A stretch of 64,000 nucleotides of DNA, from assembly GCF_003018255.1 (NCBI RefSeq), contig NZ_CP027440.1; one strand, written 5' to 3'. Positions 27,810 to 31,366 of this stretch are shown here, one piece after another. Source of the DNA: Escherichia coli. GTDB taxonomy: Bacteria; Pseudomonadota; Gammaproteobacteria; Enterobacterales; Enterobacteriaceae. The position numbers were made by a program, and so were the translations under genes. The first letter of the stretch is position 1; each line of letters starts with the position of its first letter. The notes under the pieces were generated by a model. That model was not told where the DNA came from. It saw nothing but the letters and a program-made list of their open reading frames with translations, and did not search any database.

Positions 27810-27849
27810 GTTGCGACGCGGCTTTCAGCTCACTGTCGCGAGGTGGCGT

Positions 27850-27877
27850 ATATTACGCTTTCCTCTTTCAGAGTCAA
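27850..27877 (-). promoter_or_regulatory. rrnD P2 promoter
   Basis: Minus strand: -35 TTGACT (27877-27872), 16-bp spacer, -10 TAATAT (27855-27850). Confidence 0.75.
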
Positions 27878-27957
27878 CCCCGAATTTCAGGATTTTTTCT
27901 CTTTGTTGTTACGACCATCTTGTGAAGTGTTTCACGTTGTCGTCTCAACGGAGGCGC

Positions 27958-27985
27958 ATTATAGGGATCCCAATTTTTTGCACAA
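27958..27985 (-). promoter_or_regulatory. rrnD P1 promoter core
   Basis: Minus strand: -35 TTGTGC (27985-27980), 16-bp spacer, -10 TATAAT (27963-27958), GC discriminator GCGCC; A/T-rich tract upstream (27986-28080) fits the UP element/Fis-site region. Confidence 0.75.
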
Positions 27986-28137
27986 GTACTTTTTTGATCT
28001 TTTTTTCTGTTTGTTGCTTTTTCACCCTTTTTGCTGCATTCGCACACAAAACGGTGCTTTTTTGCATGCTAAAAGACTTGCACAAGGCCAATAATGCACC
28101 CAAAGTCATTAGTAAATCATTTATTGTTGAGGTGAGT

Positions 28138-28692
28138 ATGTCTGATGTTTTACGCCCATACCGCGATCTTTTTCCACAAATCGGCCAGCGCGTAATGATC
28201 GACGATAGCAGCGTCGTGATTGGTGACGTTCGTCTGGCTGATGATGTGGGGATCTGGCCGCTCGTTGTGATTCGTGGAGATGTACATTATGTACAGATCG
28301 GAGCACGCACCAATATCCAGGATGGCAGTATGTTGCATGTCACTCATAAATCCTCGTACAACCCAGATGGCAACCCATTAACCATTGGCGAAGATGTCAC
28401 TGTTGGTCACAAGGTGATGCTCCACGGCTGCACCATTGGCAATCGAGTTTTGGTTGGGATGGGCTCAATTTTACTTGATGGCGCAATAGTAGAAGATGAT
28501 GTGATGATTGGTGCGGGTAGCCTGGTCCCACAAAATAAACGGCTGGAGAGCGGATATCTGTATCTCGGTAGCCCCGTCAAACAGATCCGCCCGTTAAGTG
28601 ATGAAGAGAAGGCTGGGTTACGCTATTCCGCGAAGAATTACGTGAAATGGAAGGACGAATATCTGGATCAGGGTAACCAGACCCAACCTTGA
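28138..28692 (+). CDS. yrdA: Hexapeptide-repeat (gamma-carbonic-anhydrase-like) protein YrdA
   Basis: 184 aa from ATG 28138 (MSDVLRPYRDLF); left-handed beta-helix repeats; ORF-track start 27811 runs through the rrnD promoters. Confidence 0.92.
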   Translation: MSDVLRPYRDLFPQIGQRVMIDDSSVVIGDVRLADDVGIWPLVVIRGDVHYVQIGARTNIQDGSMLHVTHKSSYNPDGNPLTIGEDVTVGHKVMLHGCTIGNRVLVGMGSILLDGAIVEDDVMIGAGSLVPQNKRLESGYLYLGSPVKQIRPLSDEEKAGLRYSAKNYVKWKDEYLDQGNQTQP

Positions 28693-28925
28693 TCATCTTC
28701 ACTTTGTTCCTGAATTAAGTTTTCCGCTTCTTCTTCCAGGTCCCAGCGATGCTGACGAAAACTCGCTAACCACTGTTCTGGCGTATCTCCAGTAAAGCGA
28801 TACGCCAGACTCTCGCCAGAGATCGCACATGTCAGTTGCATACCATTCACGAGAGCGGGAAAACATACACATCTTTTATTCTCGTCCCACTCTTCCCTAT
28901 CCGGAAACTGGATGGCCTGATTCAC
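28668..28925 (-). CDS. yrdB: DUF1488 protein YrdB
   Basis: 85-aa acidic ORF; 3' end overlaps yrdA 3' end by 25 nt on the opposite strand. Confidence 0.85.
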
Positions 28926-29740
28926 GCTGACAATTCCTGTTGCAATAGTTTGATGACCGGTTCTACATCAGGCAGAACGCCATGCCAAAGAAGGAAGGCA
29001 TGAGCCGCCTGTGCCACCAGCATTCCTAAACCATCAGCATTACGCTTTGAGCCTCGCTGCTCACACCATGCCAGAAAAGGAGTTTTTCCTTTCTGATAGA
29101 ACATGTCATAGCAATAAATGCCTGGATGAATAAGCGATGACGGGATCGCCGGAATATCACCACTGATGCCACTGGATGTTGCATTAATAATGAGATCAAA
29201 CTCATGACCTTCCAGTTCGTCCATACCCAACGCCTGAATACTGCCAGTGTGCGCAAACAATTTAGCCAACTCTTCCGCGCGGGATACCGTCCGATTAGTG
29301 ATTGTCACCGCACAGTCCAGGGAAAGAAGTGGCAGTAGTACGCCGCGAGAAGCTCCACCAGCGCCGATGAGCAGAATACGTAAACCAGGACGGATAAAAG
29401 ACAGACGTTCCAGATCGCTTAACAAACCTATACCATCGGTATTGTCACCCAGCAGGCGTCCATCTTCTAACCGCTTGAGGGTATTAACAGCACCAGCCAA
29501 CGCTGCCCGTTCAGTAAGCTCATCCGCTCTGGCAAAAGCCTCTTCTTTAAAAGGTACCGTCACATTCGCACCTTTACCACCAGCACTAAAGAAAGCGTTC
29601 AGTGTGTTGATGAAATCATTGATGGGTGCCAACACGCGCCCATAGGGATGTTCAATATTCAGTTGCTGAGCAAATTGCTGATGAATGAATGGCGATTTGC
29701 TGTGGGCTATCGGATTACCAAAAACAGCATAGGTTTCCAT
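28922..29740 (-). CDS. aroE: Shikimate 5-dehydrogenase
   Basis: 272 aa from ATG at 29740 ([20 protein letters not shown]); ORF-track start is a 9-codon upstream extension. Confidence 0.95.
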
Positions 29741-30892: not shown

Positions 30893-31366
30893 TTAATGCA
30901 GCATACCTTCATTCACTTCAAAGAGTAATTCTTCCATTTGCTGGTACGCATTTTCGCAGCCCGGAATATTGAACAACACCATCAGGATTACCCATTTCAG
31001 GTCTTCCAGGTCGAACTCTGCGGTATCCAGCGCGAGCACTCGCTCTATCACCATTTCACGGGTTTCAAGGTTAAGCACCTGAATTTGCTCAAGGAAAAGC
31101 AGAAAACCACGACAGCTGGCATCCAGCCTTTCACACTCTTCAGGGGTATAAATACGCATGGAGAGTGGATCAGAGGCCAGTTGCATCGGTTCTGCCAGTC
31201 CTTCCTGATAATCCGCAAGCTTTTCCAGCCAAAGCAGGGCATTGTAGATATCTTCTCGATCAAATCCTGCGTCGGTAAGATCCTGTTCAAGTTTGTCTTG
31301 ATCCACACGCAACTCAGCTTCTGTGTGAATATAGGTTTCAAACAAATACATTAGTACGTCGAACAT
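30893..31366 (-). CDS. smg: Smg protein (DUF494)
   Basis: 157-aa acidic ORF recognised from translation. Confidence 0.92.

Follow-up and report, generated by a model that had tools for sequence, protein, structure and literature searches.

The 3'-to-3' coding overlap of the convergent genes yrdA and yrdB in Escherichia coli and related Enterobacteriaceae

The convergent genes yrdA and yrdB of Escherichia coli run into each other at their 3' ends. This raises the questions of whether both reading frames are genuine across the shared nucleotides, what has held the arrangement in place and whether it serves any regulatory purpose. We analysed a window of 64,000 nucleotides of E. coli DNA (contig NZ_CP027440.1), numbered from its first nucleotide; the features discussed here are collected in Table 1. 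The original prediction, a 3'-to-3' overlap of 25 nt, proved exact both by the coordinates of the open reading frames and by the K-12 and strain annotations. In K-12 MG1655, RefSeq places yrdA (b3279) at 3429236..3429790 and yrdB (b3280) at 3429766..3430023, which again overlap by 25 nt (K-12 coordinate = window coordinate + 3401098), and the RefSeq annotation of a sequence-identical strain gives the same overlap. Positions 28000-29100 of the window are 100% identical to strain DETEC-S792 and are matched by 5425 of 5426 complete E. coli genomes. The overlap is already known: the reference genome annotates it, and it has been catalogued among transcriptional overlaps. What is added here is descriptive: its fixity over one family, a phase that is unchanged between Vibrio and E. 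coli, and the contrast between a constrained YrdB end and a probable passenger tail of YrdA.

Table 1. Features at the yrdA/yrdB junction, in window coordinates
Feature	Coordinates	Strand	Description and evidence
yrdA CDS	28138..28692	+	184 aa; ATG 28138, TGA 28690-28692; open reading frame, Pfam Hexapep, PDB 3TIO/3TIS, RefSeq
yrdB CDS	28668..28925	-	85 aa, DUF1488; GTG 28925-28923, TGA 28670-28668; open reading frame, Pfam, 2GPI, AlphaFold2
Convergent coding overlap	28668..28692	both	25 nt; yrdA Q178-P184 and stop, yrdB Q79-P85 and stop
aroE CDS	28922..29740	-	Annotation; TGA stop overlaps the yrdB GTG start as GTGA 28925-28922
9-bp imperfect inverted repeat	GATCAGGGT 28666-28674 / ACCTTGATC 28686-28694	both	Fold shows a stem
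Stem-loop	CTGGCGTATC 28778-28787 / GATACGCCAG 28799-28808	+	Within yrdB codons 40-50; 10-bp perfect stem
Rho termination region, reported centre	28818 (K-12 3429916)	-	Resolution of hundreds of nt

On each strand, the shared stretch comprises seven complete sense codons, a single base of another and the stop codon, and the earlier description of the last eight codons of each gene as lying on opposite strands of the same DNA is correct when the stop is counted. The yrdB codons involved read Q79-G80-W81-V82-W83-L84-P85. As read from the sequence, the two frames have their third codon positions in common throughout the overlap. The pair is placed among convergent CDS overlaps by its shared 3' ends, by genuine open reading frames that run to the annotated stops and by conservation in relatives. 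An antisense frame that stays open over seven codons is not improbable in itself, its chance being about (61/64)^7, or ~0.7; what exceeds chance is the conservation of the overlap, not its mere openness.

YrdA is classed by sequence as a hexapeptide-repeat, gamma-carbonic-anhydrase-like protein. It matches the Pfam Hexapep profile with 68.7 bits (cut-off 27) and differs by two substitutions over 183 aligned residues from the crystallised E. coli YrdA (3TIO/3TIS; E 1.6e-120 for 3TIO), the 3TIO chain spanning YrdA residues 2-184. The Salmonella orthologue 3R3R (E 1.6e-105) also terminates in ...QP. A GAGG motif precedes the ATG at 28138. An AlphaFold2 model of YrdA built from 21 orthologues was poor (pLDDT 61.8). 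The frame remains open upstream of this ATG, forming a 293-aa open reading frame from a TTG (27811-28692, + strand), and a 2020 biochemical paper describes the expression of a 256-aa 'EcoCAgamma' with 72 additional N-terminal residues (WP_009008373.1). From Vibrio to E. coli, all YrdA orthologues start at an M-S/T-x-x-L-R-x-Y motif, and the current RefSeq protein is the 184-aa form. The N-terminal extension (27922-28137), which covers sequence upstream of the rrnD 16S gene, probably does not belong to the protein.

Conservation, proposed in the original prediction as a check on the yrdB frame, supports it. The DUF1488 profile (Pfam PF07369) aligns over its entire length (1-82 of 82) with YrdB residues 5-84 (E 1.5e-33; 115 bits against a cut-off of 22), and the structure of a DUF1488 homologue has been solved (2GPI). 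Homologues of 84-91 aa are found in many Gammaproteobacteria, including Enterobacterales and Vibrio; their Met-Asn-Gln start is invariant, and G80 is invariant among 26 distant homologues. YrdB is 85 aa long, with its stop codon at the same position, in 79 of the 80 species of the genome scan described below. The start codon in these species is ATG (49) or GTG (31), and it forms an [A/G]TGA junction with the aroE stop in 79 of them. A start/stop overlap of the GTGA type typically marks translational coupling. Where the gene encodes YrdB only, third positions have a diversity of 0.51 among 76 species and the other two positions 0.21 and 0.25, a skew that is expected of a coding frame. The AlphaFold2 model of YrdB (26 homologues) reaches a mean pLDDT of 93, with residues 81-83 (Trp-Val-Trp) forming a confident beta-strand. 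Together, these data indicate that yrdA and yrdB are both genuine protein-coding genes. The original prediction had also made yrdB the first gene of its string. By annotation, the minus-strand order of transcription is dprA-smg-yrdD-tsaC-aroE-yrdB, with yrdB at the end; a published operon list gives yrdD-tsaC-aroE-yrdB. Further along the same strand, smg and dprA (smf) are annotated with a same-strand overlap of 29 nt (31338-31366, - strand), which exceeds the usual 1 or 4 nt.

The conservation of the overlap was assessed with a scan of one genome per species, using eight close YrdB sequences as the query. It returned 80 loci, all of them from Enterobacteriaceae because the query consisted of these eight closer sequences; genera include Escherichia, Citrobacter, Salmonella, Klebsiella, Raoultella, Kosakonia, Kluyvera, Cedecea, Trabulsiella, Siccibacter and Franconibacter. 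Two E. coli records bring the set to 82 loci. The overlap is exactly 25 nt in 78 of these, and in the remaining four every change is on the yrdA side: the yrdA stop is shifted in three loci and yrdA is frameshifted in one. In Kosakonia sp. S29 and Phytobacter diazotrophicus, the yrdA stop comes two codons early (overlap of 19 nt), and in Siccibacter turicensis it is lost (40 nt). In strain YDC799 of Kluyvera genomosp. 3 (CP022114.1), the yrdA frame runs into an out-of-frame stretch, GRFCWMAWSLKTMS*, and stops 160 nt short of yrdB; either yrdA is a frameshift pseudogene there or the assembly contains a sequencing error. A misplaced stop in related genomes, the outcome that was to count against the overlap, is thus mostly not seen, the yrdB stop keeping its codon in 79 of 80 species and the yrdA stop moving in 3 of 82 loci. 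Within E. coli, the junction is found in 5406 of 5426 genomes, and both genes are annotated over it in 30 of 30 records sampled across the ranking. One contig, labelled Chryseobacterium sp. 18061 (CACSKA010000021.1), carries a typical Enterobacteriaceae aroE-yrdB-yrdA locus (YrdB identity of 70%, overlap of 25 nt) and probably reflects contamination or a mislabelled assembly.

Taxa beyond Enterobacteriaceae were followed singly through exact-protein look-ups of distant YrdB homologues. The tail-to-tail arrangement of aroE-yrdB and yrdA was present in each of the six taxa followed. The two genes overlap by 46 nt in Pantoea stewartii, 25 nt in Rouxiella (in a different register), 13 nt in Edaphovirga and 4 nt (TTAA) in Vibrio fortis, and they are separated by a gap of 11 nt in both Limnobaculum and Plesiomonas. 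All the spacing values found, within the family and beyond it (-11, 4, 13, 19, 25, 40 and 46), equal 1 mod 3, so the relative phase has stayed constant and the stop codons alone have moved. A constant phase with moving stops is what is predicted by the stop-codon-mutation model, which Lillo and Krakauer (2007; PMC2174442) found to fit convergent overlaps generally, counting 58 of them in E. coli.

The original prediction held that such an overlap constrains both sequences. This is borne out by low third-position diversity and by single substitutions that alter both proteins. Among 76 species, third-position diversity is 0.29 in the overlap and 0.53 and 0.51 in the flanks, and overall diversity is 0.176 against 0.265 and 0.324. 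Single substitutions couple Thr, Ile, Asn, Ser or Tyr at YrdA residue 182 with Val, Ile, Phe, Leu or Tyr, respectively, at YrdB residue 82. YrdA P184 (CCN) faces YrdB G80 (GGN). Position 28677 is C in all 76 species and position 28683 in 68 of them; the third base of yrdA codons 180 and 182 is C because each lies opposite the single Trp codon (YrdB W81 and W83). The yrdA TGA faces the T of yrdB codon 78 and the CA of codon 79, so YrdB residue 79 is Gln or His wherever the TGA stop is kept, and at the single locus with a TAA stop in yrdA it is Tyr. The resulting tail of YrdA in Enterobacteriaceae follows the pattern ..Q-x-[NS]-[QH]-x-x-P. In Edaphovirga, W83 of YrdB is replaced by Tyr; the change puts a TAG into the yrdA frame and reduces the overlap to 13 nt, a likely route of overlap shortening. 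In E. coli itself, the two proteins end alike, YrdA in DQGNQTQP and YrdB in DQGWVWLP, with the common pattern Asp-Gln-Gly, four residues, Pro and stop; each stop faces the Asp-Gln codons of the other gene and each Pro faces the other's Gly. This symmetry is limited to Escherichia and a few Citrobacter, and most genera have Ser at the YrdB end.

The two proteins differ in what is conserved near their ends. The last invariant residues of YrdA are K172, Y175 and L176, and the part encoded in the overlap (Q178-P184) comes after them. Outside Enterobacteriaceae, the YrdA tail past Tyr-Leu ranges from 2 to 13 residues, with unrelated sequences, and the alignment of gamma-carbonic-anhydrase homologues in the PDB to YrdA reaches only to about residue 170-179. 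All 76 species have C at position 28669 and TGA as the yrdB stop. A T instead of that C would turn the yrdB stop from TGA into TAA, a silent change, and would cut YrdA short at Q178. The invariance of this C hints weakly at some selection for keeping the YrdA tail, the signal being weak because the stops of neighbouring genes switch in just 4-10% of these species.

The 9-bp inverted repeat at the junction exists because, in E. coli, yrdA and yrdB both read Asp-Gln-Gly (GAT-CA(G/A)-GGT) across the other's stop. It was considered as a terminator and rejected, with z-scores of -1.1 (+ strand) and -0.2 (- strand), no U tract and absence from other genera. A terminator consensus scan of 28600-28950 found no site, and the G+C-rich hairpin with A tract and U tract of a bidirectional intrinsic terminator is not present at the junction. 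A stem-loop lies inside yrdB at 28778-28808, with an MFE of -17.9 kcal/mol and a z-score between about -2.5 and -3.5. The structure is stable in E. coli and likewise in some 40% of the species, and similar stems occur at the same place in many Enterobacteriaceae genera. Some of the stems in relatives carry changes on both sides of a pair. RNAalifold retrieved no consensus structure for this hairpin across species; its pairing was 70.6%, compared with 67.9% in column-shuffled controls, covariation was modest, and G-U asymmetry favoured neither strand.

Published transcript data agree with the antisense transcript overlap expected in the original prediction, through both an excludon listing and a Term-seq end inside yrdB. 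Supplementary file 1 of Adams et al. (2021, eLife) lists a Term-seq 3' end at K-12 3429912 (+ strand), classed as antisense to yrdB. It corresponds to window position 28814 (+ strand), 6 nt past the hairpin, which lacks a U tract, and 122 nt beyond the stop of yrdA, and is likely the 3' end of the yrdA mRNA. On the opposite strand, supplementary file 2 of the same study reports a Rho termination region centred at 3429916 (Rho score of 2.48, significance of 1.8e-7). In the ExcludonFinder list (PMC12288877), yrdA-yrdB is one of 165 convergent pairs called as excludons in half or more of 58 MG1655 RNA-seq samples.

Building on the coordinates, genuine reading frames, conservation, phase and coupled substitutions of the present analysis, we consider it very probable that this is a genuine tail-to-tail overlap generated by a stop-codon shift, in which the conserved end of YrdB fixes a dispensable YrdA tail; we infer that this tail is carried along as a passenger and that the overlap serves no regulation. 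According to this explanation, yrdA would have abutted yrdB since before the divergence of Vibrionales and Enterobacterales, the relative frame remaining constant while the stop positions moved, and shifts of a stop codon in such a spacer-less convergent pair would yield an ordinary tail-to-tail overlap. In Enterobacteriaceae, the yrdA frame would thereby extend seven codons into the antisense of the last codons of yrdB. These codons specify a conserved structured strand (G80, W81 and W83) under purifying selection, and selection on the yrdB end would fix the bases of the opposite strand and, with them, the YrdA tail and its TGA stop. The YrdA tail beyond L176 would probably be a passenger peptide of little or no function. 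As the two genes leave no space for a terminator between them, each mRNA must end inside the other gene. On the published data for transcript overlap, 3' end and Rho region, the yrdA mRNA would end at the hairpin 122 nt into yrdB and the operon strand would end through the Rho region.

Three other readings were weighed against this explanation. That yrdB is untranslated or mis-annotated, which would leave no true coding overlap, is scarcely credible. It would agree with the Mori et al. (2021) proteome supplement, where neither yrdA nor yrdB has an entry, and with a gene that has no assigned function and just mild phenotypes in the Keio deletion. The full-length DUF1488 match, the 84-91 aa homologues and 2GPI, the invariant MNQ start and G80, the excess of third-position diversity (0.51 vs 0.21/0.25), the constant length of 85 aa and the [A/G]TGA junction with aroE in 79 of 80 species, and the pLDDT of 93 all speak against it. 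A functional YrdA tail would turn Q178-P184 into true dual coding, with both proteins selected within the overlap. Position 28669, never T in 76 species though silent for yrdB, points in this direction, as does the retention of the seven residues in 78 of 82 loci. Yet all the conserved features of the tail are explained by the yrdB codons opposite (P184 by G80, the third bases by W81 and W83), and YrdA forms of 182 and 189 aa occur naturally within Enterobacteriaceae. Given also the unrelated tails of 2 to 13 residues in other families and the end of the PDB alignment at about residue 170-179, we regard a functional tail as quite improbable.

The remaining reading is that the overlap is kept for regulation as an excludon, in which convergent transcription would reduce expression of one side by the other, through double-stranded RNA and RNase III or through transcriptional interference. 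The ExcludonFinder listing, the yrdA 3' end 122 nt within yrdB, the close abutment preserved from Vibrio to E. coli and the recurrence in many genera of a hairpin at the mapped yrdA 3' end would all fit. Nevertheless, a coding overlap makes transcript overlap unavoidable, and the latter is hence no proof of regulation. Reciprocal expression data for yrdA and yrdB were not found, the overlap length varies freely among families (-11 to 46 nt), and support for conservation of the hairpin is weak, with no RNAalifold consensus, pairing barely above that of shuffled columns and no strand asymmetry. We judge regulation unlikely as the reason for the overlap. Its more specific form is quite improbable too: the spacer-less arrangement kept from Vibrio to E. 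coli and the hairpin within yrdB at which the yrdA mRNA ends would together make up a selected antisense switch, by which yrdA transcription would adjust the 3' end of the aroE-yrdB mRNA. The tight abutment from Vibrio to E. coli could itself have been selected, for example for antisense control.

With other convergent overlaps (PMC2174442), yrdA/yrdB shares the opposite strands, the common 3' ends and a length that changes by gain or loss of a stop. Its phase, 123:213, in which third positions face each other, is that of the common 4-nt TTAA/CTAG class, although among convergent overlaps of at least 5 nt this phase is the rarest (18%). It differs from them in its length, 25 nt instead of the modal 4 nt, and in being unusually stable, with one length across a whole family. 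The pair resembles excludons as a listed convergent excludon of MG1655, a call made from RNA-seq coverage. Most excludons, however, overlap in untranslated regions over a short spacer (mean of 95 nt in E. coli), whereas yrdA and yrdB overlap in their coding sequences (PMC12288877), and the feature that the pair shares with excludons is transcript overlap. The mscL-arfA pair (PMC10070815) is similar in consisting of convergent E. coli neighbours with 3'-complementary transcripts, and it too is in the excludon list; an antisense regulatory effect is reported for mscL-arfA, and nothing comparable is known for yrdA-yrdB. Bidirectional intrinsic terminators answer the same need, two convergent transcripts having to be ended within a short stretch. 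They do so with a hairpin flanked by A and U tracts, in contrast to the U-tract-less hairpin inside yrdB and the Rho-dependent termination on the other strand at this locus.

The yrdA/yrdB overlap is of little importance beyond the confirmation of the annotation and leaves current understanding unchallenged. The locus could conveniently serve as a natural test of dual-coding constraint or excludon-type interference. It shows that convergent genes without a spacer must terminate transcription within each other, and it is a clean, well-conserved case of one constrained C-terminus dictating the tail of its neighbour on the opposite strand.
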